Origin: Candidatus Bipolaricaulia bacterium
GTDB lineage: Bacteria; Bipolaricaulota; Bipolaricaulia; M55B111
Reading direction: 5' to 3'
DNA length: 38,501 nucleotides
Assembly (NCBI GenBank): GCA_042218715.1
Contig: JBDGQU010000197.1
Coordinates: 1-38,501, forward strand
In this document: piece by piece, positions 989 to 22,393 of the stretch
How the letters are laid out: every line of letters starts with the position of its first letter
How positions within the stretch are numbered: position 1 is the stretch's first letter
The notes under the pieces: model-generated
The model's database searches: none
Seen by the model: the letters and a program-made list of their open reading frames with translations, nothing else
What the model was told of the DNA's origin: nothing
Translations under genes and position numbers: made by a program

Positions 989-2776
989 ATGGGCAGAACA
1001 AAAGAATCCACCCCTCAAGACGTTTCTTTCTCCAAGTTGGCCGAAACAAACCCTGCGGCCATTACCAAGTTAAATAAGGAAGGTAGGATCATTTACGCAA
1101 ATAAGAAGGCAGAAGAGGTGCTGAGTCTAGAAGAATCGGAGAAAACGAACCGGACATACGACGACTCTGCCTGGAAGGTCATCGACTTCGAAGGCAACGA
1201 GTTCCCCAAAGAAGAACTTCCATTCCAGAGAGTAAAGAATATCGGAGAACCGGTCTCCGACGTAAAGCACGCGGTAGAATGGCCAAACGGAAAGAGGAAG
1301 TATCTCTCCGTAAGTGCCTCTCCCTTGTTTGATAATGATGGTAATTTCGACGGCGTGTTAGCAGTCTTAGAGGATATCACCGAACGCGAACAACTAAAAT
1401 ATGACCTAGAAACAAGCGAAAAACGTTACCGAAGATTGTTTGAGACAGCCCAGGACGGGATGCTTATCCTGGAGGCGGACACAGGAAAGATAATAGACGC
1501 CAACCCTTATATACGGGACCTCTTGAGGTTTTCCAAAGAAGAGTTGGTAGGCAAACAGCTTTGGGAGATCGGAACCTTTCGAGACGTAGTGGAAAACAAG
1601 GAAAAATTCCAGGAACTTGTAGAAGAAGGCTACATTCGGTACGAACACCTACCCTTGAAGACGAAAAACGAAGAAGAGGCTCCAGTCGAATTCGTCAGCA
1701 ATACCTACATGGTTGACGGCGAAAAAGTCGTCCAGTGTAACATAAGGGATATAACCGAGCGCAAGAAGGCAGAGGCCGAACTGGAAGAAAAAGAAAAAGA
1801 GATGTCCATACTCTTCAGCAACCTGCCAGGAATGGCCTTCAAGTGTGAAAACGACGGGAAATCGACCATGAGGTTTGTTAGTCAAGGATCCAAAAAGCTA
1901 ACTGGTTACTCCCCCGAAGAACTTATCGATAGCGCCCAGGTTTCCTACAGGGAACTGATCGTCAAAGAGGATAGGGAGAGAACCCGGAATGAAGTTCTGC
2001 AGGCATTTGATTCTGACCAGCCCTTTGAACTTGAATACAGGATAAAGACCAAAGAGGGGAAAGAAAAACACGTCTGGGAACGGGGAAGGGGAGTATATAC
2101 CGATGAAGGCGAGCTGGAAAACCTGCAGGGTTTTATTAGTGACATTACCGAAAGAAAAAAGATGGAAAATCAAATACGACATGACAAACAGGACCTCCGC
2201 CAATCCTTCGTCAAACTCGCCGAAACCACCTCCCGGGTACTTGGCGTAAGAGACCCGTATACGAAAAAGCACGAACTAAGGGTGGGGGAACTAGCACGAG
2301 AAGTGGGAGAAAGGATGGGTTTAGGCGAAGATAAATTACTGGGATTGTACATCGGCGGCGTATTACACGACATAGGTAAAATAGTGGTACCGGAGACCAT
2401 CTTAACCAAACCAGGGGACCTAAAAGATGTCGAGTGGCAAATGATTAAATCCCATCCGACAGTGGGCTACGACCAAATCCTTGAGGATACCGACTTTCCC
2501 TGGCCGGTGGCGGAGATGACCCTCCACCACCACGAGAGACTTGATGGTTCCGGTTACCCTGACGGATTAACAGAGGAAGAACTCTCAAAAGAAGTACGAA
2601 TTCTTGCCGTAGTGGACGTGGTTGAAGCCATGAGCACCAGACGTCCCTACAGGGAAGCAAGGTCTAAGGTGAAAACTCTGAGGGTAATCAAAGACGGAAA
2701 AGGAAAGAAGTTCGACCCGGAAGTGGTAGAAGTGCTGATTGAGATGATCGAGGAAAACGTAATCGATTTTGGGTAA
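989..2776 (+). CDS. PAS-PAS-PAS-HD-GYP c-di-GMP phosphodiesterase
   Basis: Three PAS/PAC units each ending in DITER; C-terminal HD-GYP motifs [24 protein letters not shown] and DVVEAM..RRPYR. Confidence 0.92.
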
Positions 2777-2808
2777 CCAGATTCTTGAACCCAATCAAGG
2801 AGATCAGG

Positions 2809-3206
2809 ATGGGTAAAGGAAGGAGAATTTCGATTGAATCTCTGATCGAGGACGTGCCGCTGGCCGTATTCGACCTTGACCCGGAAGGGAGGGTTAAATT
2901 CATCTGGAGCGAAGCCGCCGAGGAAACCTCGGCTGGAAGAAGGAGGAAGAGTTAGGGAGCTCTCTTCCCCTAGTTCCGGAGGAGAAGTTAGATGAGTTCC
3001 GGGAGTTGAGAGATCAGGTACTGGAAGGTGGTTCGTTCTCGGGGTGGAGGTCAAACGGCAGAAAAAGGACGGCTCCCTGATTGACTTCTCGTTGACTTTA
3101 GCTATGGGCGTCTCTTACTGGAGCTCCGACCAGGAACGTGACGTTGAAGAAGCGCTAAAAGAGGCGGATAAAAATGTATGCGGACGAGATGAAACAAGGG
3201 GCATAG
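2809..3206 (+). pseudogene. Frameshifted, internally deleted PAS-GGDEF gene remnant
   Basis: AAGGAG RBS then ATG 2809. Adding one base in each of three short runs (CC ~2927, GGGG ~3041, AAAAA ~3170) gives a PAS-like sequence (SLIEDVPLAVFDLDPEGRVKFIWSEAAEETLGWKKEE...RQKKDGSLIDF) joined directly to a GGDEF C-terminus (LTLAMGVSYW...VEEALKEADKKMY), which resembles the end of the 5120-5968 cyclase. Confidence 0.8.
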
Positions 3207-3218
3207 CTAGCTAGTATC

Positions 3219-3247
3219 TTGAGAGTATTATTGAAGATGGGTATTAT
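3219..3247 (+). promoter_or_regulatory. Sigma70-type promoter of the kaiC-like operon
   Basis: TTGAGA-17 bp-TATTAT; GAGGAGG RBS before ATG 3277. Confidence 0.6.
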
Positions 3248-3276
3248 TGAGTGTAAATTGATTTCGAGGAGGAAAC

Positions 3277-4746
3277 ATGACCGAAACAGAAACCACCAGA
3301 GTTCCAACCGGCGTAACTGGACTGGACGAAGTACTTAATGGAGGCTTCATCCCTCACAGGACGTACTTAATTAGAGGAGAAGCCGGTACGGGTAAGACAA
3401 TTTTAGGACTCCACTACCTGATAGAAGGAGTAAATAACGACGAGAATACACTGTTCATAACCTTCTCAGAGACAGAAAAGCAGATCAACCAGAATGCGAC
3501 GGCTTTGGGCTTGAGTTCTGAAGGGGTAGAAATACTGGATCTCTCTCCGGGGTCGGAGAAGTTCACCGAGGAGGAAACCTACGACGTCTTCCATCCTTCG
3601 GAGGTGGAGCAGGAACCGATCGTGGGGAGGATAAAAGAAAAAGTGGATCAACTCGAACCGACCAGAGTATTCATAGATGCCATAACCATCCTCCGGCACT
3701 TAACCAGCGAGGAATTCCAGTTCAGGGAACAGTTTCTTTCGCTGTCCAAATACCTGGGTAACCAGGGGGCAACGGTCCTGTTTACCTCTGAGACCAGTTC
3801 GGAGAACCCGGACACGGACCTCCAGTTCATGTCGGACGGGATAATCGAGCTCACTCGTTCGGACAGAAGCAGAAAGCTTGCCGTAAGCAAGTTCCGGGGC
3901 TCGGACTACCAGGAGGGAAACCACTCTTTGGAGATATCGACCGGTGGACTCAAGGTTTACCCCTGGCTGGTACCGGAAAAGTCGGGAGAAGGTTTCAGCT
4001 CGAAGTCCCTTCCTTCCGGTGTTCCCGAGATGGACGAGATGCTTCACGGCGGTCTGGAAACGGGAACAGTAACCCTGTTTACCGGTCCCAGCGGGGTGGG
4101 AAAGACCAGCCTGGCCCTCCAGTTCGCCAAAGAAGCCGCCGGACGGGGCGACAGAACGGCAGTTTACAATTTCGACGAGGACACGGACCTGCTAAACGCC
4201 AGAAGCGAGGCAATAAATATACCTATAGGTAAGATGATCGAAGGTGGAAATTTGGTGGTAAACGAGGTAAAGCCGCTGGAGCTTACGGCCAACCAGTTCG
4301 CCCAGCGAGTGAGAAAAGAAGTAGAGCAGAAAGGGACGAAGATAGTCGTTTTGGACAGCGTAAACGGCTACGACCTCGCCATTAAAGGGGGAAAGCTACA
4401 GGAGTCCCTCTATAACCTGACCCAGTACTTCCGGGCCAAGGGAATAACCGCGATTCTAACCAACGAGGTAAGCAAGATCACAGGCCAGTTCCAGGCTTCC
4501 GACATGGATATTACGGTCATTGCCGACAACGTCGTCTTCTTCCGTTACCTGGAGATCGAGGGCCGGCTTCGCAAGGCCATCGGTGTGTTGAAAAAACGGG
4601 TAAGCGACTTCGAACGCAGCCTGCGGGAGTTTACGATAACCGAACACGGGATAAAGGTCGGTGCCCCGATGGAGAACCTCAGAGGAATACTGAGCGGTCA
4701 GCCGGACTGGAACGATGAACAGGGTCCCGGCGAACGGGAGACCTAA
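3277..4746 (+). CDS. KaiC-like double-domain RecA-superfamily ATPase
   Basis: Two Walker A motifs (GEAGTGKT, GPSGVGKT), Walker B-like VFIDA/VVLDS, KFRGS and KKRVS Arg-finger segments, KaiC-type tail LRGILSGQP. Confidence 0.9.
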   Translation: MTETETTRVPTGVTGLDEVLNGGFIPHRTYLIRGEAGTGKTILGLHYLIEGVNNDENTLFITFSETEKQINQNATALGLSSEGVEILDLSPGSEKFTEEETYDVFHPSEVEQEPIVGRIKEKVDQLEPTRVFIDAITILRHLTSEEFQFREQFLSLSKYLGNQGATVLFTSETSSENPDTDLQFMSDGIIELTRSDRSRKLAVSKFRGSDYQEGNHSLEISTGGLKVYPWLVPEKSGEGFSSKSLPSGVPEMDEMLHGGLETGTVTLFTGPSGVGKTSLALQFAKEAAGRGDRTAVYNFDEDTDLLNARSEAINIPIGKMIEGGNLVVNEVKPLELTANQFAQRVRKEVEQKGTKIVVLDSVNGYDLAIKGGKLQESLYNLTQYFRAKGITAILTNEVSKITGQFQASDMDITVIADNVVFFRYLEIEGRLRKAIGVLKKRVSDFERSLREFTITEHGIKVGAPMENLRGILSGQPDWNDEQGPGERET

Positions 4747-4750
4747 TGAA

Positions 4751-5113
4751 ATGAACAGCAAGAGAATCTTGGTCGTGGCCAAAGGCGAGAAAAACCTCCA
4801 CTTGCTGGCCGACTTTCTCGCCGACCAGGGCTATGACCCAAACCCCGCCTCCTCCATAAAGGAAGTCGATGGAACCTTGCGGGAACTCGAACACCTCGAC
4901 ATGGCCCTGATAGACGTAACCGGCTTCGGGGACTCCATCTGGGATCGGTGTGAGCGGATAAGGAACGAAGGGGTCCCGTTTTTCATAATTTCACCGAAGA
5001 AAACCGGTAAGGCCAAGGAGAAGAGCTTATCGGAAGGAGCCAGGGACGTCCTGACCAAGCCACTCGAGAAGAAGAGACTACTCAAGCTGGTTGAGATCAT
5101 ACTGGGAGAGTAG
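4751..5113 (+). CDS. Stand-alone atypical receiver (REC-like) protein
   Basis: RILVV beta1, ALID (Asp retained), FFIIS and LTKPL match the receiver fold, but the acidic pair after beta1 is replaced by AK. Start placed at ATG 4751, just after the kaiC stop. Confidence 0.8.
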   Translation: MNSKRILVVAKGEKNLHLLADFLADQGYDPNPASSIKEVDGTLRELEHLDMALIDVTGFGDSIWDRCERIRNEGVPFFIISPKKTGKAKEKSLSEGARDVLTKPLEKKRLLKLVEIILGE

Positions 5114-5119
5114 ATCGCC

Positions 5120-5968
5120 GTGGCAAAGATTATGCTAGCCCTGCAGAATGAAAGGAACCGAGAACTCATCAGAGACGAGCTTGCTGAGAACCATTCCGCT
5201 CTTGAAGGTAGGGAAGAAGAGGATTGCGCCCGGGACGTTGATCTCGTCATCTTCGATTTACCCACCTTTAAAAAACTCCGAGAGGCCTGTGAAAGTAAAA
5301 GGGAGGAGGAGAAACCGCTACACTTGCCGGTGCTGTTGCTGCTGGAGAGGGAAAAGGAAGAAGCGGTGGCGAAATATCTCGGTGATACCGTCGACGATAT
5401 CCTGCTAACTCCCGTCAAAAAACCGGAACTGAAAACCAGAATTGGGTCCTTACTTCAAACGAGACGGTTCTCCCTCAAGTTTAGAGACCAAATGAGAGAA
5501 GAGTCCCTAAAAGATCCCCTTACAGGTCTTTACAACCGCCGCTATTTTCAGGAGTTCATCGAAAAGGAAGCCGAGAGAGCAAGGAGGTATGGGCACCCGA
5601 TTTCCTTTTCGATGATGGATATAAACAATTTTAAGGATATAAACGACCGTTATTCCCACATGGTGGGTGACGAGGTCCTCAAAGATATATCCCAGCTACT
5701 GCTTGATAATATCCGGGAATCGGACATCCTGGTAAGGTACGGCGGAGACGAGTTCCTGCTGGTCATGCCGGAGACGAACCGAGGAATAACTGTTGTAGTA
5801 GACAGAATAGTTCATAAACTGAAAGAATGGAACGGGAAGACGGATCTGATCGAAGAGACCTTAGAGATAGCCATTGGTCAATCGTACTGGGCGCCTGAAA
5901 AAGATATATCTATAGAACAAGCTCTAAAAGAAGCGGATGAGGATATGTACGAGAATAAGAGGGGATAA
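5120..5968 (+). CDS. Diguanylate cyclase with degenerate N-terminal receiver domain
   Basis: DPLTGLYNRR, DINNFKDINDRYSHMVGD, RESD I-site five residues before an intact GGDEF, ADEDMY. N-terminal REC-like region (LVIFD, LLTPV) lacks the acidic pocket. Confidence 0.92.
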   Translation: MAKIMLALQNERNRELIRDELAENHSALEGREEEDCARDVDLVIFDLPTFKKLREACESKREEEKPLHLPVLLLLEREKEEAVAKYLGDTVDDILLTPVKKPELKTRIGSLLQTRRFSLKFRDQMREESLKDPLTGLYNRRYFQEFIEKEAERARRYGHPISFSMMDINNFKDINDRYSHMVGDEVLKDISQLLLDNIRESDILVRYGGDEFLLVMPETNRGITVVVDRIVHKLKEWNGKTDLIEETLEIAIGQSYWAPEKDISIEQALKEADEDMYENKRG

Positions 5969-6035: not shown

Positions 6036-6070
6036 AACTATCATCTCAGTTCGGAGAAGATAGTTTTTCT
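6036..6070 (+). terminator. Probable intrinsic terminator after the cyclase
   Basis: AACTATC-A-TCTC/AGTTCG/GAGA-A-GATAGTT stem followed by TTTCT. Confidence 0.5.
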
Positions 6071-6221: not shown

Positions 6222-7217
6222 GTGGTCGATTTGAGATTTACAGCGCAGATCGAAACAATGATCGAACAGTACTCAACGCAGCCGGTAATTTATATGGGTG
6301 CTACTTTGGGTGCACTGGTGGTACTGTTCTTATCCTGGACGCTCCATCGGTGGTTGAGACAAAGGAAGCTTTCCAGGGGAGACGAATTAGATAACAGGAT
6401 CAAGCGAATCCTGACGGGGCAACCCGAGGTGAAGTTGCTTTCCGAGAACCCCAGAAAAACAACTAAGGTAGTTTTCGAGCTTTTAAGTAATTCCGATGAT
6501 GAAGAGGAAAAGGAGGCGTTACTTAGCCAACTGGAGGAATTAAACTTCGGTGAGGTACTGGCTGACGTCGAGATTCAGGAACAAGAGAGGGACTACGGAT
6601 TGCTAGTCGTCACAAGCGCACTGGGATTGGATAAGGGTTGGCAAACCTGCTTAAAGTGGTTGGATCAGCACGGAAGCTGGCAGTGGACGGCAGCTATTCA
6701 CGCTTTAAGTTACTGGCCCGGACACAACGCCGACCAGGTCCTGGTTTCAGAGATGGCTTCCCTTGCCGAAAGGTATCAGATTAACGATAGAGCTTTCAAT
6801 CAACCGATTATAGGGGCTCTTTCCCGACGGGGCAAAAAGACCCAGAAACTGGCTATGGATTACCTGACATCCTATTCTCCTCCTAACCTTCAGATACTCT
6901 TTCTGATGTTCTTTAAGGAAGTTGAAGAGGTAGACCCCGAAGTTGAAGAGTTCCTTGAAGAGCGTCTTAAAATTCTTTGGAAAGAAGCGGATAACGAGAT
7001 GAAAGCTAGCATACTTGGAGTAGCCGCTAAACACGGTCTCACCGGCCTCGTGCCTCTGGCAAAGGATGCTATAGGAGTAGAGGTAGATTTCGTCCAGTTG
7101 TGGGCAGTAAGGCTACTAGCCAAGTGCTCTTCCCCTAATTCCTACCTCGAGAAAGTGAAGAACGATGGTTCGCCTCGAGCCAAGAGAGAGGTTGAAGAAC
7201 TGCACTCCGGCAGTTAG
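6222..7217 (+). CDS. Membrane-anchored helical (HEAT-repeat-like) protein
   Basis: One N-terminal hydrophobic helix followed by a basic stop-transfer stretch; HEAT-like helices (WTAAIHALS, VQLWAVRLLAK, SPRAKREV); lies directly upstream of a GT2 synthase. Start may be ATG 6258. Confidence 0.65.
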   Translation: MVDLRFTAQIETMIEQYSTQPVIYMGATLGALVVLFLSWTLHRWLRQRKLSRGDELDNRIKRILTGQPEVKLLSENPRKTTKVVFELLSNSDDEEEKEALLSQLEELNFGEVLADVEIQEQERDYGLLVVTSALGLDKGWQTCLKWLDQHGSWQWTAAIHALSYWPGHNADQVLVSEMASLAERYQINDRAFNQPIIGALSRRGKKTQKLAMDYLTSYSPPNLQILFLMFFKEVEEVDPEVEEFLEERLKILWKEADNEMKASILGVAAKHGLTGLVPLAKDAIGVEVDFVQLWAVRLLAKCSSPNSYLEKVKNDGSPRAKREVEELHSGS

Positions 7218-7234
7218 AACTAATTAGAAACTCG

Positions 7235-8662
7235 ATGATCTCTCTCCTCAGGACGGCGTTGATAATAAGCCAGTGGACCATTCTTGTCTATTTTGTTCTT
7301 AATACACTATTCCAGCTGGTAAAGTTCTCTTTGGGGTTAATTGGTGTTCGAAAATCCGCGTTTCGCGGACGGGCCGGGGCGTACGCAGAAGAGATTATCC
7401 TCCGGCAACCAGGAGTTACTATAATTATTCCAGCCTATAACGAAGAATCGGTGATTGTGGGGTCTACCAAACAGGCGCTGTCCCTCGATTACCCTAACCT
7501 GGAAGTAATAGTAGTGGAAGACGGATCGAGCGACGATACTTTTGGAGAACTGAAGCAAGCTTTCGAGTTAGAGACCTCAGACGATGAACCAAAAACGGAT
7601 GCCAGTAACGCCGTGACCACTTATGGTAATGTTACCGGGACGTACAATTCTCCTACCTATCCCGGGCTAAAAGTAGTCTGTAAGGAAAACGATATTGGAA
7701 GGAAGGCCGACGCCCTAAATGTGGGGTTGACGTATGCATCTAACGCGTTTGTAGCTACCACTGACGCGGACACTTTCCTCGACTCGAAGGGCATTCATCT
7801 TTTGATGCGAGATATAACTGACCTCAATAGACCTGTGATGGTTGCGGGGGGAGCGGTTAAACCGATCAACGGTTGTATAAGGAAGGAGAATGGAGGCCTG
7901 GAAGTTCACCCACCTAAAAGCACCATAGGTAAAGCCCAGTCTGTAGAGTATCTCCGGAGTTTTTATTATGGCAGACGAGGGTTAGCCGCCATGAACGCTC
8001 TACCACTTCTTTCCGGGGCATTTTCTTTTTTCTGGCGGAGAGCACTGATAGCGGTTGAGGGTTTTCCTGTGGACACCTTAACGGAGGACCTTAAAGTCTT
8101 TCTCAAGCTTTTTTCCTGGCTAAGAGATAAGGGCGGAGGAAATCCCCCCATGTACGCTACGGAGCCGCTAGCCTGGACGGAGGTGCCGGAAAAATGGAAG
8201 GGGCTTTGGAACCAAAGGGTGCGATGGCACCAGGGTTTACTGGAAGGTCTGTGGGGGTTCAAGGACCACTTTGGCAAGCTGAGTTATGGTGCCTTTGGTC
8301 TTATAGCTTTGCCCAATCTGTTATTTTTCGAAGCTTTAGGTCCACTGGTGGAACTATTTGGTCTGGGAATTTTCGCACTTTCCTATTTTCTTGACGCTTT
8401 AAGCCTGCCTGTGTTTTTACTCTGGCTTGCTATTGCTTTTTTACTCCATATTTTTATGTCAATTGGAGCTATAATAATGAGCGACATTTCGTTTCGCCGT
8501 TACGAGAATATTTCCGACCTTGTGAAGCTTCTGGCCGCCTCCGTATTTGAACAATTTGGCTACCGACAGTTTACCGTAACGGCAAGGGTGTGGGCCACGT
8601 ACAGGTTTTTAACCGGCCGCTCAGGGGGCTGGGTATCTCCCGAGCGAAAAAGTAAAGAGTAA
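7235..8662 (+). CDS. Processive family 2 glycosyltransferase (PgaC/IcaA/cellulose-synthase-like polysaccharide synthase)
   Basis: IIPAYNEE, EDGSSDDT, KADALN, DADT, LTED and QRVRW (D,D,D,QxxRW signature); N- and C-terminal TM helices. Confidence 0.9.
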   Translation: MISLLRTALIISQWTILVYFVLNTLFQLVKFSLGLIGVRKSAFRGRAGAYAEEIILRQPGVTIIIPAYNEESVIVGSTKQALSLDYPNLEVIVVEDGSSDDTFGELKQAFELETSDDEPKTDASNAVTTYGNVTGTYNSPTYPGLKVVCKENDIGRKADALNVGLTYASNAFVATTDADTFLDSKGIHLLMRDITDLNRPVMVAGGAVKPINGCIRKENGGLEVHPPKSTIGKAQSVEYLRSFYYGRRGLAAMNALPLLSGAFSFFWRRALIAVEGFPVDTLTEDLKVFLKLFSWLRDKGGGNPPMYATEPLAWTEVPEKWKGLWNQRVRWHQGLLEGLWGFKDHFGKLSYGAFGLIALPNLLFFEALGPLVELFGLGIFALSYFLDALSLPVFLLWLAIAFLLHIFMSIGAIIMSDISFRRYENISDLVKLLAASVFEQFGYRQFTVTARVWATYRFLTGRSGGWVSPERKSKE

Positions 8663-10174: not shown

Positions 10175-11209
10175 ATGGATGTCTATAAAACGAGCGAGAG
10201 GGATTTTCTTGCTCTCTTAGAGGACATCGCATCCCGAAGAGAACTATTCGTTCCTGCAGAATATCACGGGGAGATAACTTACAAAAAGTGGGATGATCTG
10301 AACCATTCCGCGGTTCAATTCCCGAAAAATAGGATTGAGACTCCTCCCAAAGTTTTCTTCTTTCCTCCCAAAGAAGAGGTCTCGAAATTTCCCGCCGGAA
10401 AAGCAGAATCGGAAAGAAGTAAAAGGGCTATTTTCGGGCTCAAGGCTTGCGATCTATCTTCTTTCAAAGTACTCGATAACATTTTTCTCGACGAGGGGTT
10501 CGTAGATCCTTTCTACGCCATTAGACGCCACGATACGTTGCTGATTTCGAGTGACTGTTACGAAGTGTCGGATACTTGTTTCTGCAATAAAGTTGGGGGG
10601 CAACCTTACCCGGAAAAAGATTTCGACTTAAACGTAATTAAAGTCCCGGGCTTAGAGGATTTCATCGTCGAATTTAACCCCGAATCCCTGGAAGCCCAGG
10701 AAATTTATGACACGAACTCCAATCTGTTTGAACCCGTAACTGAAGAAACTCTGAAAAAAAGAACTGAGTTCCGGATCGAACAAAAAGAAGAGCTCAACGA
10801 AAAAAATAGTTTCTTCGAGATACCGGAAAACGTAGGAGATATTCCACCGGACAATCCCATCTGGGGAGAGCTGGCAGAGGATTGTGTGGAATGTGGTGCC
10901 TGTAACCTTTCCTGCCCGACATGCCACTGTTTCCAGCTTTACGAAACGGAAGAAGGCTCTTCAGTCAATCGAAATAAAGTCTGGGACAGCTGCAATTTCA
11001 AAGGGTACAGTCGCGTGGCAGGAGGAGCTAACCCGATGGAATCGCTCGAAAGCCGCGTCAAGAACAGATTTTACGATAAATTCGACAGGATGGACGAAAA
11101 TTATGGCTTTTCCGGTTGCACCGGGTGTGGAAGATGCATCGACGGATGTATGGGTGAGATTGATATGAGAGATGTCCTTAAGGAGGTTGCCGTTGAAAGT
11201 AAGAGCTGA
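10175..11209 (+). CDS. AsrA/HydB (sulfhydrogenase beta)/FlxBCD-like 4Fe-4S protein
   Basis: PPK.FFFP, FGLKACD, C...SDTCFC, CVECGACNLSCPTCHC, WDSC, CTGCGRCIDGC. Confidence 0.88.
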   Translation: MDVYKTSERDFLALLEDIASRRELFVPAEYHGEITYKKWDDLNHSAVQFPKNRIETPPKVFFFPPKEEVSKFPAGKAESERSKRAIFGLKACDLSSFKVLDNIFLDEGFVDPFYAIRRHDTLLISSDCYEVSDTCFCNKVGGQPYPEKDFDLNVIKVPGLEDFIVEFNPESLEAQEIYDTNSNLFEPVTEETLKKRTEFRIEQKEELNEKNSFFEIPENVGDIPPDNPIWGELAEDCVECGACNLSCPTCHCFQLYETEEGSSVNRNKVWDSCNFKGYSRVAGGANPMESLESRVKNRFYDKFDRMDENYGFSGCTGCGRCIDGCMGEIDMRDVLKEVAVESKS

Positions 11210-12044
11210 GATAAAAGAAGCCCTGAAAACCAGCGGTAATCCTTATAGATCAATTCCCGCAAAGATAACCGACATCGATGTCGAATCACCCAATATAAAG
11301 ACTTTCCGGCTTAAACCGGAAGAACCAATGGAATTTGCCACAGGGGAGTTTGTCCAGTTATCAGTACCGGGACTTGGAGAGGCACCGTTTACACCCTCTT
11401 CCTCCCCGAACGTGGCGGATAAGCTGGAGATTACCATCATGGAAGCGGGCGAAGTAACTGGAAAGCTTCACGACACCCCTCCTGGAGAAACGCTGGGAAT
11501 AAGAGGACCTTATGGAGAGGGATATCCGCTGGAGGAAATGAAGGGCCGGGATATTCTAGTCGTTGGCGGCGGAGTCGGTCTGGCGCCGCTTAGGTCTCTT
11601 TTATACATGTTATTGGATAAACCCGGAGCTTACGGAAAAATAAGTTTAAAATACGGCGCCCGGACCCCCGATCACCTTATCTATAAGGATCAGTTAGAGG
11701 AGTGGGACAGCGGCTCGATAATTGATCTGGAATTAACCGTAGACGAAGCTGACGATAGCTGGGAAGGGAATGTCGGCGTAGTAACCACCCTTCTAGAAGA
11801 ACCGGGAGTTGATACGGATGATGGCCTGGCAGTGGTGTGTGGCCCTCCGATTATGATGAAATTCACGGCTCAGGAGCTACTGAACCACTTTGACCCGGAA
11901 GATATTTACCTTTCCCTGGAGAAAAATATGAGCTGTGGCTTCGGCATGTGCGGTCACTGTCAGTTAGGGAAATACTACGTATGCAAGGATGGGCCCGTAT
12001 TTACCTATGACCAGGTAAAGGACATACCCGATTTGTGGGAGTGA
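11193..12044 (+). CDS. AsrB/HydG (sulfhydrogenase gamma)/FlxA-like FAD/NAD(P)-binding [2Fe-2S] subunit
   Basis: GEAPFT, IRGPYG, GGGVGLAP, YGART, CGPPIMM, MSCGFGMCGHC...VCKDGP. TTG start at 11193 follows AAGGAGG. Confidence 0.88.
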   Translation: MKVRAEIKEALKTSGNPYRSIPAKITDIDVESPNIKTFRLKPEEPMEFATGEFVQLSVPGLGEAPFTPSSSPNVADKLEITIMEAGEVTGKLHDTPPGETLGIRGPYGEGYPLEEMKGRDILVVGGGVGLAPLRSLLYMLLDKPGAYGKISLKYGARTPDHLIYKDQLEEWDSGSIIDLELTVDEADDSWEGNVGVVTTLLEEPGVDTDDGLAVVCGPPIMMKFTAQELLNHFDPEDIYLSLEKNMSCGFGMCGHCQLGKYYVCKDGPVFTYDQVKDIPDLWE

Positions 12045-12050
12045 ATTTAA

Positions 12051-12581
12051 ATGAAAACTTCCTCAGTATCCAAAGTAGAAGAAAGGACTCTGTTGCTGGA
12101 CCTGGACGTGTGTGACAGCGCGGATTGTGATAATTGTGAAGCTGACTGCAGCAATAACGTTCATCCGAATAATAAGGGAATTACAGAACTTAGAGAGCAG
12201 GCGACTTTTGCTCACTACTGCAGGCAGTGCGAGAATCAGGCATGTCTTGAGGCTTGTCCTGTAGATGCTCTCGATAAAAACGAGGCCGGTATCGTGGAGA
12301 GAGCGAATCTGTTATGCATAGGTTGCGATTCCTGCGTTGTGGCCTGCCCGTTTGGCACGATATACCCAGAATTTATACCGTTTTTTGATTCCAGCTGCGA
12401 CCTCTGTAAAGACAGGCCGGGCAAACCTTCCTGTGTATCCAGCTGCCCTTATGATGGACTAAAATCAGTACCGTCAGGACATGAACCGGAAGGGGAGGAC
12501 TGGCACGAAATGAGAGATGGGCTATTCGTTCACGTTAGTAGCTGGAAGCCCGAATTAATAGCTGGTAAAGGGGGTGAATAA
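12051..12581 (+). CDS. Four-cluster Fe-S electron-transfer protein (HycB/HydN/CooF-like)
   Basis: Four Cys groups: CDSADCDNCEADC, CRQCENQACLEACP, CIGCDSCVVACP, CDLC...CVSSCP. Confidence 0.85.
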   Translation: MKTSSVSKVEERTLLLDLDVCDSADCDNCEADCSNNVHPNNKGITELREQATFAHYCRQCENQACLEACPVDALDKNEAGIVERANLLCIGCDSCVVACPFGTIYPEFIPFFDSSCDLCKDRPGKPSCVSSCPYDGLKSVPSGHEPEGEDWHEMRDGLFVHVSSWKPELIAGKGGE

Positions 12582-13510
12582 TGGTTGGAGGGCTATTATT
12601 CAACTTTTTCGTCTTTCCAGGGCTCTTATTTACCCTGGTGTTAGGAATAATAGCTTCCTGGGTAGTTAGAAAGGTGTCCGCTCTCGTACAGTGGAGGGTA
12701 GGCCCGCCGCTGCTTCAACCAGCCTACGACATCGCGAAACTTTTCGGAAAAGAAAATATAATACCGTCTGGCAGCGTGGAATGGAGCTATCTTATAGCAC
12801 CTCTGCTGGGACCTGCGGGATTACTTCTGGCATCGATTATTCTAGTAAAAGCAAACTACCTCGGTACTTCATTTATAGGCGACGTCATAGTTGTGCTGTA
12901 TCTATTGATATTGCCAGCGCTTTCCATAGTGCTCGGGGGAATGTCCACGGGGAACCCCCTGTCGGGCCTGGGGTCAAACCGCGAGTTGAAGTTAATGTTA
13001 TCATACGAATTGCCCCTACTTCTCTCTATAACTGCGGCCATAGTCAAATCCGGAGGCCTTAAGATCGTAACTTTTACTGCTCAACCGATTGCTGCAAGCG
13101 TCTCGGGTGCACTTGGTTTTATCGCAGCTTTATTGTGCATCCAGGCCGAACTGGGATTTATCCCGTTCGACATACCGGAGGCGGAGACGGAGCTAATGGG
13201 GGGACCTCTGATAGAGTACTCCGGTCCTTTACTAGGACTTTACAAGATTTCCCATTTGATGGCTCTTTTAGTTCTACCCCTCTTCCTTGTTACCGTTTTC
13301 CTCGGCGGCTTCAGTACGGGCTGGGGGGCACTCTGGGGAGCCATAAAATATGTACTGGTTCTGGTCGGCATAATTTTAATTAAAAACACCAATCCGAGGC
13401 TAAGGTCCGACCAAGCCCTAAAGTTTTTCTGGTATGGGGCAACGCCCCTGGCACTCCTTGCTCTGGTGCTCGCGGTCGTAGGGGATCTAGTCGGATTAGG
13501 CTGGGTATAA
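12581..13510 (+). CDS. Membrane-bound hydrogenase subunit, NuoH/HycD/MbhM family
   Basis: QWRVGPPLLQP.YD..KL..KE, PFDIPEAETEL.GGP..EYSG, NPRLR; multiple TM helices. Confidence 0.92.
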   Translation: MVGGLLFNFFVFPGLLFTLVLGIIASWVVRKVSALVQWRVGPPLLQPAYDIAKLFGKENIIPSGSVEWSYLIAPLLGPAGLLLASIILVKANYLGTSFIGDVIVVLYLLILPALSIVLGGMSTGNPLSGLGSNRELKLMLSYELPLLLSITAAIVKSGGLKIVTFTAQPIAASVSGALGFIAALLCIQAELGFIPFDIPEAETELMGGPLIEYSGPLLGLYKISHLMALLVLPLFLVTVFLGGFSTGWGALWGAIKYVLVLVGIILIKNTNPRLRSDQALKFFWYGATPLALLALVLAVVGDLVGLGWV

Positions 13511-13529
13511 ACCGGGAGGAATCTAAATA

Positions 13530-13976
13530 ATGAATTGGAAAAGTTGGGGAATAAGCAAATCTCCCTGGCTCTATCACGTTAACACGGGCTCCTGCAATAA
13601 TTGTGATATTGAGATAGTTGATTGCTTAAGCCCAAAATTCGATGTAGAGAGATTCGGAGGGAAACTGGTAGGTTCTCCCAGGCACGCTGATGTACTAATG
13701 GTAACGGGACCTATGACCCGTAAATCAAAGCCAAGATTTGCACGGGTTATGAAAGCTTCTGCTAAGCCGTTTATCGTCGCGGCCGTGGGTACATGTGCCT
13801 GTTCCAAGGGAATGTTTCACGATGCTTATAACTGCGTTGGTCCCGTGAGAAAAGTCACCGAAGACATCGAGGAAGATATTATGGTTCTGAATATTCCTGG
13901 TTGCCCACCTAGGCCGGAAGCAATTATCGACGGATTAGTCGCGGGACTCAACAAGCTAAGGGAAGTGGAAGTATGA
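13530..13976 (+). CDS. Group 4 hydrogenase small subunit (NuoB/HycG/MbhJ family)
   Basis: GSCNNCDIE, SPRHADV..VTGP, GTCA, PGCPPRPEAI. Confidence 0.93.
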   Translation: MNWKSWGISKSPWLYHVNTGSCNNCDIEIVDCLSPKFDVERFGGKLVGSPRHADVLMVTGPMTRKSKPRFARVMKASAKPFIVAAVGTCACSKGMFHDAYNCVGPVRKVTEDIEEDIMVLNIPGCPPRPEAIIDGLVAGLNKLREVEV

Positions 13977-14431
13977 ATCCTTCGACGTTTAAAGATGAGT
14001 TATCGGGCAGGTTCGGTTGGAAACTTGGAAACACTAAAGAGAGCGAAGGAAGGTTATATCTGACTCCTGAACCGGAAATTTTAGATGAGCTTATCGAGGA
14101 AATTTTTGAGGAGAATAACGGTCGACTGGCAACTATATCCTGTGTCGACGAAGAAAGTCAATTTAAGCTTCTATATCACTTCGCACTCGATCACGAGGGC
14201 TTCATTACGACGGTAAAATTGCCGGTCGACAAGGATGGAGACCCTAGCACGGAGTCAATCGCGAATCAAATACCCGGAGCGGAATGGATAGAGCGGGAAA
14301 TAATGGAAATGTTCGGGGTCGATTTCCACAACCATCCCGCAAAGAAGAGGTTGTTAAAGGCTGAAGCGCTCGATGACCAGGACTTCCCCTACAGAAAGGA
14401 TTTCAACGTTGAAGACCTGGAGGAGAACTAA
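13973..14431 (+). CDS. NuoC/MbhK-family subunit
   Basis: RLATISCVD, LLYHF, A.WIERE..EMFGV.F..HP...RL. Confidence 0.9.
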   Translation: MNPSTFKDELSGRFGWKLGNTKESEGRLYLTPEPEILDELIEEIFEENNGRLATISCVDEESQFKLLYHFALDHEGFITTVKLPVDKDGDPSTESIANQIPGAEWIEREIMEMFGVDFHNHPAKKRLLKAEALDDQDFPYRKDFNVEDLEEN

Positions 14432-14432
14432 T

Positions 14433-15632
14433 ATGGCGACAACGATACCCATAGGACCGTATCATCCCCTGCAGGAGGAGCCCGAACACTACCTTCTCAC
14501 AGTTGAAGAGGAAGAGGTAATCGACGTCGACGTACAGATAGGATATAACCATAGAGGAATTGAGAAGCTATCCGAAAAGAAGTCTTTCAATCAAATTCCG
14601 TTTCTCGTGGAGCGGGTTTGCGGCATCTGTTCTCACTCCCACCCTTACGCTTACTGTCTGGCAGTAGAGGATTGTGGAAACATCGAAGTTCCCGAAAGAG
14701 CAAAGTATATTAGAACTCTGATAGGCGAATTGGAGAGAATCCACTCTCACCTGCTCTGGGCAGGATTAGCCGGGCACTTTATAGGTTATGACACAGTATT
14801 TATGTGGGGCTGGAGGTACAGAGAGGAAGTACTTGATATACTTGAAAGTCTCACCGGAAACAGAAACGCCTACGCCATGATGAAGCCGGGAGGAGTCCAA
14901 AGGGAGATAAAGAGGGAGGATTTAGATGGAGTGCAACAGACCCTGGAAACGCTAAAAGAGAAGGCGGAAATGTTATACGGAGCCGTACTTGATGATCCCG
15001 TATTGAAGGCGAGATTGGAAGGAGTAGGGGTCCTACCCGAGGAAGATGCGCGGGCCTACGGAGCACTGGGGCCGACTTCAAGGGCTTCGGGGCTTCCCGC
15101 TGACGTGAGATGCGATTTTCCCTACGGAGTATACGATAATCTGGACTGGAAAGTAATAACCCGAGATGCCGGAGATACGCTTGCCCGGGTGGAAGTGAGA
15201 CTTCTCGAAACCCTCGAGTCGATAAAGATGGCTGAACAAATCATTGACGACATCCCGAACGAGGGCCCAATTGACTCGGAACCGGAAGAAGTTCCACCGG
15301 GAGAGGGGATTGGAAATTATGAAGCACCTCGAGGAGAATGTTTTCATTACCTTCAGAGTGATGGATCGAACCGGCCGATACGACATAAGATTCGCGCCCC
15401 TACTTTCATGAACTTTCCCACTTATAAATCTACGTGCGAAGGCGAAACCGTCTCGGACGCGACGATAATCCTCGCCTCCGTCGATCCATGTTACAGCTGT
15501 ACGGAACGAGCTATACGTATAAAGAACAAGGAGGAAGTGGATTTAGTGGAATTAAGTCAGAAAAAAACGGCTAAGCTCAAGGAAAAGTTTGAAGTCGAGA
15601 AGAGCCCCCTGGAGGAGGTTCTAGATGAGTGA
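14433..15632 (+). CDS. Group 4 [NiFe]-hydrogenase large subunit (MbhL/HycE-like)
   Basis: GPYHP, HRGIEK, L1 motif ERVCGICSHSH, EAPRGE, L2 motif DPCYSCTER; all four Ni/Fe Cys present; 40-aa extension after L2. Start ATG 14433 after GGAGGAG. Confidence 0.93.
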   Translation: MATTIPIGPYHPLQEEPEHYLLTVEEEEVIDVDVQIGYNHRGIEKLSEKKSFNQIPFLVERVCGICSHSHPYAYCLAVEDCGNIEVPERAKYIRTLIGELERIHSHLLWAGLAGHFIGYDTVFMWGWRYREEVLDILESLTGNRNAYAMMKPGGVQREIKREDLDGVQQTLETLKEKAEMLYGAVLDDPVLKARLEGVGVLPEEDARAYGALGPTSRASGLPADVRCDFPYGVYDNLDWKVITRDAGDTLARVEVRLLETLESIKMAEQIIDDIPNEGPIDSEPEEVPPGEGIGNYEAPRGECFHYLQSDGSNRPIRHKIRAPTFMNFPTYKSTCEGETVSDATIILASVDPCYSCTERAIRIKNKEEVDLVELSQKKTAKLKEKFEVEKSPLEEVLDE

Positions 15633-17499
15633 TATTGGAATTTATGGACTGGCGCTGCTGGTGATACCTCTGGGAGCCAGTCCGATAATCTGGGTAATAG
15701 GGAAGGTTAATGGCAAACTCAGGAACTCTTTAACCCAAATTATTACATTGGGCCTCTTTGGTTTCTCGGTTTCTCTTTTTCCAGCCGTTCAATCTGGAAA
15801 TCTGGAATTTCTGAGTAAAGTAATTGGAGGATTAACGATAACTTTCGGAGTGGCTCCCCTCTCGTTACTAATGGTATCTTTAATTTCGTTTCTCTCTTTT
15901 CTCGCTTCAGTCTTTTCCCCAGCTTACTTAACGAGGTACGAAAGCTCCCAATTAAACGAAGACAAATATTATAGCGTCCTCCTTGTCTTCATGGCGGGAA
16001 TGATTGGGGCGGTGACCTCTGGGGAGCTTTTTTCAATGTTTTTGTTCTGGGAATTAATGACTTTAGGGGCGTATTTCTTGGTCGTATTTGAGAACACAGG
16101 AGTGGCGATTAAGGCCGGAAATAAGTATTTCTTGATGAGCGAAGCCGGGGCCCTATCTATTATAGCCGGGATAGTCCTTCTCTGGACGGAAACTGGAACT
16201 TCCCAGGTAAGTGCCATTCATAGCATAATGAGCTTACCGCCGGAGATGAAAACTTCTATCTTGGCCCTTTTCCTGGTCGGTTTCGGGGTGAAAACGGCTT
16301 ACTTTCCTCTTCATTCTTGGGTACCGGAAGCTTACCCTGAATCCCCTTCGCCGATCTCAGCCCTGCTCTCCGGAGCTATGAAGAAGATAGGTTTATTCTG
16401 GATAATTCGGATATTTTGGGAGATCTTCGAGGTATCGCCCTCGTGGAATAGCGCCTTAGCTGTAATTGGTGCCTTCACAATAGTAATTGGGGGGCTGCTT
16501 GCAATCGTCCAGAACGACTTAAAGCGGTTAATAGCTTACTCTAGCATATCACAGGTTGGATATATTATGCTGGGAGTAGGGATAGGAACGGGACTTGGAA
16601 TCACGGGTGCAATAACTCACCTGCTAAACCATGCCCTGTTTAAAGGACTGTTATTTCTCGGGGCTGGGATAGTCATTTATATGACAGGCACGAGGAAGCT
16701 GGACGAACTAGGCGGACTGGGTAAAGAAATCCCGGTAGTCTTCGGTTCGGTCCTTATTGGGATACTTTCGCTGGCCGGAATACCCCCGTTGAACGGGTTC
16801 TACTCAAAGTGGATTTTATACCAGGCTACCGTGGACTTCGGGCGAGGTTTCGCCCCTTTTCTCCTGGTAGCCGCTCTCTTTGGTAGTACCCTTTCAGTCA
16901 TCTACGGCGCTAAGTTCCTTTTCTCGGCCTTCTTTGGGAATGTAGGAAATAAGCTAAAAAGGTATCCCGGATGGGGTATGAAATCCGCTGTCGGGGTCCC
17001 TGCACTTTTGTGCATAGCACTCGGTGTGTATCCGAGACTATTGCTTGATTCAGTCAGGCCAATAATCGGTCAAATCCCTGCTTTCACAGGAACATGGACG
17101 GCTTATATGGCAGCAGCCTTCTTACTTGGAGCCATAGTAGTAGGGGTGGGAGCTTATTCCCTTTTTGACTTGAAGAAGCACTCTACTCGTAAACCGGTTT
17201 TCCTGGGGGGAGAGAACGAAGAAACCATAGACGAGGAGATGTATTTTCCCTACCTCAAGGAACTCGACTTCAAGGTCTATCCTTCGGAAATTTATAACAG
17301 TATAAAGAGTTCCAGGTTAGTTAACTGGCTCTTCGTCGCCGAAGAACGAAAATTCATAGATCTCTACGCGGCAATTAGCTGGGTGGGCAAAGCGTTTACC
17401 AGGTCGTTCAGGTGGGCTCATAACGGGCTCCTCTCCAGATACCTGGTCTGGGTATTTTCCGGTTTGATCGTGATATTATGGCTTCTGACAACACAATAA
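15625..17499 (+). CDS. Large antiporter-like subunit (MrpA/NuoL/HyfB family)
   Basis: FWELMT, GVKTAYFPLHSWVP, LKRLIAYSSISQ, HALFKGLLFL, GIPPLNGFYSKW; C-terminal H.GLLS.Y helix. Confidence 0.88.
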   Translation: MSDIGIYGLALLVIPLGASPIIWVIGKVNGKLRNSLTQIITLGLFGFSVSLFPAVQSGNLEFLSKVIGGLTITFGVAPLSLLMVSLISFLSFLASVFSPAYLTRYESSQLNEDKYYSVLLVFMAGMIGAVTSGELFSMFLFWELMTLGAYFLVVFENTGVAIKAGNKYFLMSEAGALSIIAGIVLLWTETGTSQVSAIHSIMSLPPEMKTSILALFLVGFGVKTAYFPLHSWVPEAYPESPSPISALLSGAMKKIGLFWIIRIFWEIFEVSPSWNSALAVIGAFTIVIGGLLAIVQNDLKRLIAYSSISQVGYIMLGVGIGTGLGITGAITHLLNHALFKGLLFLGAGIVIYMTGTRKLDELGGLGKEIPVVFGSVLIGILSLAGIPPLNGFYSKWILYQATVDFGRGFAPFLLVAALFGSTLSVIYGAKFLFSAFFGNVGNKLKRYPGWGMKSAVGVPALLCIALGVYPRLLLDSVRPIIGQIPAFTGTWTAYMAAAFLLGAIVVGVGAYSLFDLKKHSTRKPVFLGGENEETIDEEMYFPYLKELDFKVYPSEIYNSIKSSRLVNWLFVAEERKFIDLYAAISWVGKAFTRSFRWAHNGLLSRYLVWVFSGLIVILWLLTTQ

Positions 17500-17514
17500 C
17501 GGGGTTGGTTTAGG

Positions 17515-18063
17515 ATGGTACTTATCCAGGTATTTTTGGTCTTTACAATAATTGCCGCCTTAATAGCTGTCGAGGCTCCGTCCGCACTCTCTTCAATTAT
17601 TTCACTGGGGGCGGTGGGTTTCGGCCTTAGTATTGCCTTTTTGTGGCTCGGAGCACCGGATATCGCGATTACGCAGGTGGTTGTTGAGATAATTACCCTG
17701 GTAATTCTGATAAGGGCCACGATAGGTAAAGGCGTGACTGAAATCAGGGGAAATGAGAGCAAACCTCTGTTAATCGGTAGTTTGATCCTTTTTGGCCTGG
17801 GTTCGGCCTTTTTTGCAAATTACCTCAGTGCTTTTCCTGAATTTGGAAAATCCGCCATGGACGTATTTTCTGATACTCCAAGTCAGTTTTACCTGAAATA
17901 TGGACTTGAAAAAGCAGGTGGGTCTAACATAGTAAACGACATTCTCCTGGACTTTAGGGCCTATGACACCCTTGGCGAAGCCACTGTTCTGTTTACCGCC
18001 ATCCTGGGGGCGATAACTCTGCTTGGCAAAAACGTTTTCATTGGAAAAGGAGGGAATGAATGA
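17515..18063 (+). CDS. MbhD+MbhE-like fusion (homologous to MrpA C-terminal parts)
   Basis: APDIAITQ..VE and NIVNDILLDFRAYDTLGEATVLF motifs. Confidence 0.85.
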   Translation: MVLIQVFLVFTIIAALIAVEAPSALSSIISLGAVGFGLSIAFLWLGAPDIAITQVVVEIITLVILIRATIGKGVTEIRGNESKPLLIGSLILFGLGSAFFANYLSAFPEFGKSAMDVFSDTPSQFYLKYGLEKAGGSNIVNDILLDFRAYDTLGEATVLFTAILGAITLLGKNVFIGKGGNE

Positions 18064-18503
18064 GCGGAATGAGCCCAATAGTAAAGACGGTGACCCGATG
18101 GGTCTCCCCGTTCATCCTGGCGTTTGGAGTTTACATTGCCCTTACCGGACATCTCACCCCGGGTGGAGGTTTCCCCGGAGGTGTAATCATTGCCGGTTGT
18201 TTCGTATTGCTGATGCTTGCCTACGGAAAGGAAAAGGTCTATGGGGTATTTGACCTGAAATCCGCTTCTGCTACCGACAGCCTGGCTTCCCTGTCCTTCC
18301 TCTGTATGGGTCTGCTGGGTTACGTATTCGGAGGCGGATTTCTCACTAATTTCATTCAATCCGGTTTTCCCGGAAAGGCGTTCAAACTGTTAAGTGGCGG
18401 CAATATGCCGATAATCAACATAGCCATTGGCCTTAAGGTAGGAGGGTCGCTATTCGTCGTATTTGCCTACCTCGCCCTGTTTCGAGCGGTCGAGGAGGAC
18501 TGA
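18060..18503 (+). CDS. mnhB: MrpB/MnhB (MbhF) subunit
   Basis: GHLTPGGGFPGG, LLSGG, IGLKV. Confidence 0.88.
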   Translation: MSGMSPIVKTVTRWVSPFILAFGVYIALTGHLTPGGGFPGGVIIAGCFVLLMLAYGKEKVYGVFDLKSASATDSLASLSFLCMGLLGYVFGGGFLTNFIQSGFPGKAFKLLSGGNMPIINIAIGLKVGGSLFVVFAYLALFRAVEED

Positions 18504-18505
18504 AG

Positions 18506-18856
18506 ATGTTTACTTACTTACTCGCATTTGTTCTTTTTGCGGTGGGGCTATATAGCGTAATAAACAAGCGAAACCTGATTAAGATCATTATGGGGATAAT
18601 CATTATGGAGCACGCCGTAAATGCCTTCTTGATCCTTGTTGGTTACAGGATCTCCGGAAAAGCACCGATACTTGACAAGGAAATGACGGTAACGGAATTC
18701 GTCAACTCCGCAGTGGATCCTCTACCACAGGCACTTGTCATTACCTCGATCGTCATAAGTCTTGGAGTGGTGGCGTTGATGGTCGCCCTTGCCGTGAGGT
18801 TATATCAGCACTACGGCACCTTTGATATTACGGAAATTAGGAAATTAAGGGGGTAG
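18506..18856 (+). CDS. mnhC: MrpC/MnhC (MbhG) subunit
   Basis: NLIKII.G, DPLPQALVITSIVI. Confidence 0.9.
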   Translation: MFTYLLAFVLFAVGLYSVINKRNLIKIIMGIIIMEHAVNAFLILVGYRISGKAPILDKEMTVTEFVNSAVDPLPQALVITSIVISLGVVALMVALAVRLYQHYGTFDITEIRKLRG

Positions 18857-18862
18857 TCAAGT

Positions 18863-20368: not shown

Positions 20369-20371
20369 AAG

Positions 20372-22092: not shown

Positions 22093-22393
22093 GAAGGAAA
22101 ATTGCGAAATCAGAGAACGAGATACTGAAAAACTTCTACCAGGGCTTGTCAAGTCGAACTGAGCTAAATTCGGTTATTGGTCCTATCGGTAAATTTTCTG
22201 GGTACGGAAGCACTCTAATTGGTCTTTGCCATCCTACAAATTTCCCCGGGTTGCGGGAGGTTCTGTAACGTAAGATGGCATAAATTACCTGAATAAACTG
22301 CCGGGCGAGAAACTTGATTCCGAGTCTTGGTTTTTACGGAATGTTAGGGCCATCAGGGCGAAAGTAAGCCCCTATCTCCAAAGGTGAGAAATC

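Follow-up and report, generated by a model that had tools for sequence, protein, structure and literature searches.

KaiB-less KaiC modules and the Bipolaricaulota locus

In the cyanobacterial clock the state of KaiC is read by KaiB, SasA and CikA, and pseudo-receiver domains occur in KaiA and CikA. KaiB-less KaiC-like ATPases are very common in bacteria and archaea, and in 2017 Makarova et al. reportedly described the archaeal proteins as 'signal transduction hubs'. De Luca et al. (2011; PMC3164672) distinguished three genomic contexts of kaiC: in the second, according to the sections of the paper considered here, a KaiB-less kaiC is always followed by the gene of a kinase, Nt_HK, whose receiver-like N-terminal domain was proposed to bind KaiC, and in the looser third context kaiC is followed by a receiver gene or lies near histidine kinase (HK) or GGDEF-EAL genes. 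The same sections report co-transcription of a kaiC context in Ramlibacter. Here we describe a three-gene operon in a 38,501-nt stretch of Candidatus Bipolaricaulia DNA (hereafter the window), which is contig C109 of a 1.78-Mb metagenome-assembled genome (MAG) that is 90.8% complete. The operon encodes a KaiC-like ATPase, a stand-alone receiver (S) and a pseudo-receiver domain (B) fused to a GGDEF diguanylate cyclase. In our view the operon is probably the form that a widespread KaiB-less module, consisting of a KaiC-like ATPase, S, and B fused to an exchangeable output, takes in Bipolaricaulota. GGDEF would here replace the usual histidine kinase, and the state of the ATPase would be read through contact with S and B.

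The locus has in common with the contexts of De Luca et al. a KaiB-less KaiC homologue followed by a protein with a conserved N-terminal receiver-like domain; its relatives carry the same 'SY' phosphosite pattern, and the paper likewise describes a receiver gene after kaiC. It differs from them in its GGDEF output, with neither HisKA nor HATPase_c, in the 'TV' phosphosites of the window's clade, and in the small S family with its residue pattern, both absent from the sections considered. There, the N-terminal domain was compared with KaiB and SasA, whereas B is modelled as a plain receiver; the Ramlibacter Nt_HK is likened to the present proteins by description only. The same applies to LbKaiC2 of Leptolyngbya boryana, a non-clock KaiC-like protein encoded 3 nt upstream of a kinase gene, whose function was left open (Matsukami et al. 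2024, PMC11680916). Like the ATPase described here, it adjoins a signalling gene, and it is multimeric with low ATPase activity; its output, however, is a kinase, and the part of that report considered here mentions no small receiver. KaiC-REC fusions have been described from Methanosarcinaceae (Galperin et al. 2018, PMC5847659). As far as these archaeal reports go, they share with our family, which has haloarchaeal members, the linkage of KaiC-family ATPases to receivers and variable signalling outputs, but the proteins they describe are mostly single-domain or inactivated, whereas the present family has two domains and, judging from its motifs, is apparently active. The likeness to the cyanobacterial clock lies in a KaiC hexamer whose state would, by analogy, be read by binding with pseudo-receivers involved. 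Different are the lack of KaiA, KaiB and a SasA-type thioredoxin fold, the other receiver family, and the lack of evidence of rhythm.

A literature search found no paper that brings together 'KaiC-like' and 'diguanylate cyclase', the contents of Makarova 2017 and Terrettaz 2023, which could lower the novelty, lying outside that search; among the papers listed for KaiC and GGDEF, none by title or abstract concerned the module except PMC3164672. What is new is the GGDEF output variant and a clearer three-part anatomy of a known, mechanistically unsolved module, and not a new kind of system. Kinase versions of the module are difficult to assay, the regulator on which they act not being known. The GGDEF version ends in an enzyme with an easy read-out, cyclic di-GMP (c-di-GMP), and its three small soluble proteins would allow an in vitro test of whether and how the state of the ATPase is transmitted through degenerate receivers. 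The finding also draws attention to the small receiver S and its unexplained residue pattern.

Anatomy of the operon

The unit comprises three open reading frames (ORFs) on the + strand, at 3277-4746 (489 aa), 4715-5113 and 5120-5968 (282 aa). Because homologues begin there, S most likely starts at the in-frame ATG at 4751, which gives 120 aa, rather than at the ORF start at 4715, and the gaps between the genes are then 4 nt (KaiC-like/S) and 6 nt (S/B-GGDEF). The third gene starts with GTG at 5120, and the resulting N-terminus, 'MAKIMLAL', agrees with homologues. The features of the operon are the following.

3219 to 3247, + strand: sigma-70-like promoter match, TTGAGA-17-TATTAT, 10/12, 30 nt upstream of the kaiC-like ATG (consensus match only)
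3277 to 4746, + strand: two-domain KaiC-like ATPase, 489 aa (Pfam KaiC PF06745, E 3.9e-77, two stretches)
4751 to 5113, + strand: S, stand-alone 120-aa receiver (Pfam Response_reg PF00072, 32.1 bits, cut-off 30.2)
5120 to 5509, + strand: B domain, pseudo-receiver with Q9, N10, D46, L75 and T97 (AlphaFold2 model, Foldseek)
5510 to 5968, + strand: GGDEF diguanylate cyclase domain (Pfam GGDEF, E 1.1e-42)
6036 to 6070, + strand: hairpin followed by U5, possible intrinsic terminator about 70 nt past the stop codon (minimum free energy -11.8 kcal/mol, z -2.86)

A preliminary description of the window had presented these genes as one unit of KaiC-like ATPase, receiver and pseudo-receiver-GGDEF protein, which the ORFs, the Pfam assignments and the short gaps bear out; the operon is real and intact. 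Equally, no kaiA, kaiB or histidine kinase gene is seen by Pfam among the ORFs of the window, as had been stated. The unit was further said to have its own promoter and terminator. Its promoter stands as a consensus match, in a region with a site count of 9 compared with 3.1 +/- 2.0 in shuffles, and GAGGAGG lies directly upstream of the kaiC-like start. For the terminator, a consensus scan found no + strand site and did not call the hairpin at 6036-6070. That hairpin, as stable as which 2/200 shuffles fold, is a possible candidate.

The KaiC-like ATPase

The CI half of the ATPase spans about residues 1-235 and the CII half about 236-489. Each is a RecA-like domain with a Walker A motif (G34-T41, G270-T277) and a catalytic glutamate (E65, E301), which places the protein in the KaiC superfamily; these motifs are invariant in relatives, including residues G37/G39/K40 and G273/G275/K276. 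Weak matches to RadA, RadB and DnaB were also obtained. We call the protein KaiC-like and not a clock KaiC because it falls below both NCBIfam cut-offs for circadian KaiC (NF006799 and TIGR02655; 274.1 bits vs 408 and 180.9 vs 546.25) and has other phosphosites. Aligned to solved KaiC, S431 corresponds to T413 and T432 to V414, so that the Ser-Thr pair of circadian KaiC is missing from the window's ATPase, and the 'EE' of CI reads 'SE'; relatives show S-Y at the two phosphosites and the window's clade shows 'TV'. In the alignment the best conserved non-catalytic stretch is CI segment 96-116, a lengthened B-loop equivalent. The loop aligned to it serves in clock KaiC for the binding of KaiB. 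Co-folding of the ATPase with S scored 0.28-0.30 against a mark of 0.32 and weighs neither for nor against binding.

A KaiABC-type clock or oscillator was considered for this locus and rejected, no match for KaiA or KaiB being found in the 90.8%-complete genome and the S-T site pair being absent.

Two receivers with different residue losses

Residue columns were numbered by CheY, with canonical receivers from the surveyed loci as alignment anchors. S of the window reads 'ILVVAKGEK', so that K11 and G12 occupy the places of CheY D12 and D13, and B reads 'IMLALQNER', with Q9 and N10 there, so that the acidic pair after beta1 is indeed absent from both receivers, as the preliminary description had it. 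The loss, for which that description had proposed a survey, is family-wide: the complete pair occurs in none of the S (0/47) or B (0/69) proteins. In S neither the D12 nor the D13 column holds D or E in any of the 47 members, N standing in the latter in 36, and in B the D12 position is E or D in 55 whereas the D13 position is D or E in none.

Beyond the acidic pair the two receivers part ways. The claim that they are non-phosphorylatable is not supported as written for S, in which only the Mg2+-binding pair is gone and the acceptor D55 is retained together with S81 and K103. Across the S family, D57 is D in 46/47, T87 is S or T in 43/47 and K109 is K in 47/47, and because the acceptor Asp, the Ser/Thr and the Lys are near-invariant, S is not a dead receiver. 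N15, C67, K103 and P104 are invariant and D55, G58, F59 and W64 nearly so; as placed by alignment to canonical receivers, the conserved residues would fall in the beta1-alpha1, beta3-alpha3 and beta5-alpha5 regions, around the active-site face. The profile of the family gives the window's S 145 bits and canonical regulators in the same genome no more than 49 bits. A search for longer S-containing proteins, such as KaiC-S or S-B-GGDEF fusions, returned one weak match of 60 bits, an absence that is weak evidence.

B, by comparison, keeps D46 alone of the phosphorylation quintet, with Q9, N10, L75 and T97 at the other positions; the missing conserved Lys (there given as LLTPV) was noted correctly, 'DDILLTPV' having T97 at the K109 position. 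In the B family D57 is D in 51/69, T87 is T in 54/68 and K109 is K in 22/69. The Lys is kept in 18/29 modules without S and in 4/39 with S, a contrast that hints at a division of labour between S and B; since the loci are kin and not independent, it is a lead and not a statistic. Pfam recognizes nothing at E 0.01 in the first 125 residues of the third gene product. The AlphaFold2 model (predicted local distance difference test, pLDDT, 90.8) nevertheless has (beta-alpha)5 topology and a 29-residue alpha5 helix (101-129) that runs into GGDEF, and Foldseek returned 240 PDB matches at E <=0.001, of which all top matches listed are receiver domains, among them those of the receiver-modulated cyclase 3n53, PleD (query TM-score 0.76-0.80) and DgcR (6zxm). 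A KaiB/SasA-like fold, the resemblance raised in PMC3164672, is rejected for B, all listed Foldseek matches being receivers.

In the cyclase domain an RxxD I-site lies five residues upstream of the GGDEF motif ('RESD-ILVRY-GGDEF'; RESDILVRYGGDEF, starting at residue 199). Both sites are intact, as previously reported, and are so in 10/10 B-GGDEF loci; motif and I-site together are those expected of an active diguanylate cyclase, as which we predict the protein to function.

The order of domains across S and B-GGDEF is that of PleD of Caulobacter (PDB 1w25, 2v0n, 2wb4), namely an Asp receiver, a degenerate adaptor receiver and GGDEF with RxxD, and by the PleD model of NCBIfam S corresponds to PleD 3-115 (D1) and B-GGDEF to PleD 157-446 (D2-GGDEF). 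In contrast to PleD, the domains are here divided between two genes, which reach 167.3 bits against the cut-off of 474 for NF007135, the first receiver has no acidic pair, and the linkage is always to a KaiC-like ATPase and not to kinases. DgcR (PDB 6zxm) and WspR share with the present protein a receiver alpha5 that continues as a stalk into GGDEF (NCBIfam DgcR match, E 6.1e-41); their receivers, however, are phosphorylatable, whereas in B the second acidic residue, T87 and K109 are missing.

Conservation of the module and exchange of its output

The family was surveyed with an alignment of KaiC-like relatives, run against a single genome of each species, which yielded 80 loci. L038 and L040 are identical 15.4-kb stretches at two places on one chromosome; with L040 left out, the sample comprises 83 KaiC-like copies in 79 loci. 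Downstream genes were assigned with S and B family profiles, and outputs after B were labelled by hand from Pfam. Four loci are of Bipolaricaulota type, at 71-76% identity; the others, at 49-55% identity, come from cyanobacteria, Chloroflexi, haloarchaea (L038, L046-L048, L055, L063, L068), Tectomicrobia, a myxococcal MAG and a planctomycete MAG. Source names of the closest KaiC-like relatives are Bipolaricaulota or Acetothermia, three of the nearest records bearing the depositor label 'uncultured Thermotogae'. The neighbourhood survey that had been proposed finds strong co-occurrence: an S and/or B gene lies directly downstream in 83/83 KaiC-like copies, and a B domain in 75/83, as in the window. 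Directly downstream of the KaiC-like gene the survey found:

S and B-domain protein as separate genes: 41 copies
B-domain protein only: 32 copies
S only: 8 copies (paired copies in Haladaptatus)
S then B in one chain: 2 copies (L036, L039)
Neither S nor B: 0 copies

The outputs that follow B vary:

HisKA-HATPase_c: 41 copies
PAS plus kinase: 17 copies
None (S-only copies): 8 copies
Unclassified: 5 copies
GGDEF: 4 copies, plus the window
GAF-BAT-HTH_10: 3 copies (haloarchaea)
PAS only, or cut by the contig end: 3 copies
PAS-GAF-HD-GYP: 2 copies

Because the receivers accompany the ATPase whatever the output domain, we regard S and B as coupling elements. By its fusions, B is a putative portable KaiC-coupling input module joined to kinases, HD-GYP, GGDEF, PP2C or an archaeal HTH, and S is, on present sequences, a frequent third component of the module with a distinctive residue pattern. 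S appears to have been lost repeatedly across modules, B-only modules being nested among S+B modules in a quick, midpoint-rooted tree. Short frames between the KaiC-like and B-kinase genes of two loci (L031:8464-8592, L043:3590-3721) score 21-23 bits with the S profile and resemble what would be left of an S gene after a recent loss.

When a database was searched with the B profile, 884 of the 8000 proteins scored reached E <=1e-8; the best 120 of these 884 carry mostly kinase domains, three have only PP2C and none has GGDEF. The three PP2C proteins (P0169, P0207, P0235; 361-404 aa) have PP2C/SpoIIE (PF07228) as their sole other Pfam domain, an output type absent from the 79 loci. In the two Anaerolineae fusions (L036:8353-10536, L039:8341-11148) S and B are followed by a PAS-kinase in the same chain, in the order of the two receivers of PleD; when the L039 fusion was folded from its single sequence, the S part was confident and the B part had pLDDT <50, which is uninformative on S-B packing. 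A third Anaerolineae locus (L020:2979-11411) holds a KaiC-like gene, a B protein that has three PAS domains but lacks a kinase domain, then another KaiC-family gene, which is longer (609 aa), and a large PAS/GAF protein. The Haladaptatus loci L038, L047, L063 and L068 each contain two KaiC-like + S pairs, ~2-5 kb apart, and no B gene, and in three of the four (L038, L047, L063) an RNase_H_2 (PF13482) protein follows one of the pairs.

The GGDEF version and its lineage

The GGDEF output was found only in one Bipolaricaulota family. S occurs in 7/184 genomes of the phylum, all from this one family: the window's own genome and 6/18 others. A metagenome search with B-GGDEF gave 80 loci, three of which carry the B domain, all three with S and the KaiC-like gene upstream, and L161 and L162 show the same KaiC/S/B-GGDEF order. 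Altogether, S lies directly upstream in 10/10 B-GGDEF loci, with the KaiC-like gene before it wherever the contig reaches. As far as the N-terminal and motif segments go, L083 equals L002 and L082 equals L162; because these pairs look like the same populations, we count ~8 distinct B-GGDEF versions. The five KaiC-like proteins that are linked to GGDEF group in one clade on a long branch of the quick midpoint-rooted tree (Shimodaira-Hasegawa-like approximate likelihood ratio test, SH-aLRT, 100). The system had been called 'kinase-free'. This is correct for the module in the window, which has GGDEF only and neither HisKA nor HATPase_c, but it reflects a lineage-specific swap of the output, the module normally ending in a histidine kinase, and does not set the system apart as a kind of its own.

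Searches of the 90.8%-complete genome gave no match for KaiB (PF07689) or KaiA (PF07688). Family profiles detect exactly one S and one B (130 bits), both in this operon. Of the genome's seven HATPase_c matches, six lie within ~2 kb of a strongly scoring canonical receiver, and among the receivers that exceed the Pfam cut-off S alone has no kinase in its neighbourhood.

Proposed mechanism and alternatives

According to the reading that we favour, the KaiC-like hexamer would change state with ATP binding and hydrolysis, possibly also with autophosphorylation of T413, and S and B would read this state by protein-protein contact, without His-Asp phosphotransfer. The likeliest docking site would be the conserved CI segment 96-116, by analogy with KaiB and SasA on KaiC. 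S and B may then act like the split D1/D2 receivers of PleD, and the long alpha5 stalk of B could set the dimer geometry of two GGDEF domains and thereby turn c-di-GMP synthesis on or off. Product inhibition of the cyclase may be exerted through the RxxD I-site, and a PAS-HD-GYP protein encoded upstream may supply the opposing phosphodiesterase. The anatomy is what we observe; each step of the mechanism, including direct binding and a role of the ATPase as ATP/ADP sensor or timer, we infer from it, and reading of the state by contact with S and/or B, passed via the B stalk to a dimer-dependent GGDEF, would be the most economical mechanism.

Several points weigh against this reading. The possibly related LbKaiC2 showed low ATPase activity and undetectable autophosphorylation in the results considered here (PMC11680916). 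The near-invariance of D57, S/T87 and K109 in S is the pattern that would be expected of a phosphoryl-handling site. Since the genome is 90.8% complete, KaiB or an orphan kinase might be encoded in the missing part. For promoter and terminator there are consensus or energy matches only, and kinship inflates the survey counts, many loci being from related cyanobacteria.

The main rival takes up the residue pattern of S and holds that the module is still a phosphorelay, with S accepting phosphate on D55 as a real, though unusual, receiver. In kinase versions the B-kinase would serve as donor; for the present operon the donor would be acetyl phosphate, an orphan kinase or even the KaiC-like protein, and phosphorylated S would regulate KaiC or the cyclase. 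Apart from the conserved triad of S, this explanation can draw on the kinase present in 58/83 modules and on two canonical anchor receivers that have N (one) and E (another) at the second acidic position. It has to contend, however, with the lack of D or E at either acidic position in every one of the 47 S proteins, with the retention of the S residues in kinase-less modules (GGDEF, HD-GYP and the 8 S-only haloarchaeal copies) and with 32 kinase modules from which S is missing; in the window's own genome, moreover, the 6 kinases with an adjoining receiver are all paired with a canonical one. On balance we think it unlikely, if still worthy of attention.

Information could also flow the other way, from the receivers and the cyclase, as inputs or auxiliary regulators, to the ATPase. 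The actual output of the ATPase would then lie elsewhere, for example in stress response or repair, as for other proteins of the RecA family. The kinship of the KaiC family with RecA and RadA, seen in the weak RadA, RadB and DnaB matches, would suit such a role, as would the sensory PAS or GAF domains on B proteins in many loci. Yet the domains that follow B (kinase, GGDEF, HD-GYP, HTH, PP2C) are of the classic output or transmitter types, B is always N-terminal to them, that is, in the input position, and no other conserved partner gene adjoins the module, which together make this explanation improbable. That the genes are chance neighbours or share regulation only, their products not interacting, is scarcely credible in view of adjacency in 83/83 copies over several bacterial phyla and haloarchaea, the existence of S-B fusions, the gaps of 4-6 nt and the restriction of S and B to this context, one each in the genome and both here.

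A bolder reading, for which we see only a slim chance, concerns S itself, which might be a receiver that reads phosphate rather than receiving it. Its Asp-Ser-Lys pocket, intact but devoid of Mg2+ ligands, would dock on a phospho-Thr/Ser of the KaiC-like hexamer or on the site that holds the gamma-phosphate of its nucleotide, making S a receiver-fold functional analogue of KaiB and KaiC/S/B a complete phosphorelay-independent timer or energy sensor. If this were true, the trio could be plugged into any output, here c-di-GMP synthesis. Both the contrast in Lys retention by B and the repeated loss of S hint at a division of labour between the two receivers.

Neighbouring genes and further observations

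Two features lie upstream of the operon on the same strand.

989 to 2776, + strand: PAS-PAS-PAS-HD-GYP protein, 595 aa (Pfam HD_5, E 1.4e-33, three PAS stretches; 'HDIGK')
2777 to 3276, + strand: remnants of a decayed PAS...GGDEF gene, pieces in three stop-containing frames, after the HD-GYP gene and ahead of kaiC-like

By its domains and motif, the product of 989..2776 is a probable c-di-GMP phosphodiesterase. A PAS-HD-GYP homologue is found upstream of the KaiC-like gene in 5/6 loci with visible upstream DNA (the window, L001, L003, L004 and, partially, L082), with none in L002. In the whole genome there are 5 GGDEF and 6 HD-GYP matches, and PilZ gave no match.

The 500-nt gap at 2777-3276 contains what is left of a PAS...GGDEF gene with its middle deleted, whereas relatives have only a short gap there (~84 nt in L001). 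With blastx, it matches at the PAS N-terminus the frame C57:3-1475 of the same genome (57% over 44 aa) and at the GGDEF C-terminus residues 646-686 of C181:2292-4349 (64% over 42 aa).

Downstream of the operon, positions 6222-8662 encode a 331-aa protein without a Pfam match and then a PgaC/IcaA-like family-2 glycosyltransferase (TIGR03937, E 1.5e-31, below the cut-off). The glycosyltransferase could be a c-di-GMP-controlled exopolysaccharide synthase, though the genome has no PilZ match. A language model places the 331-aa protein near HEAT-repeat proteins (score 0.91), which is no more than a lead; a homologue of it lies downstream of the module in L001. Farther along, positions 10175-23020 hold a membrane-bound hydrogenase/Mrp-type operon with a Rex-like regulator, the gene content of which agrees with Pfam.

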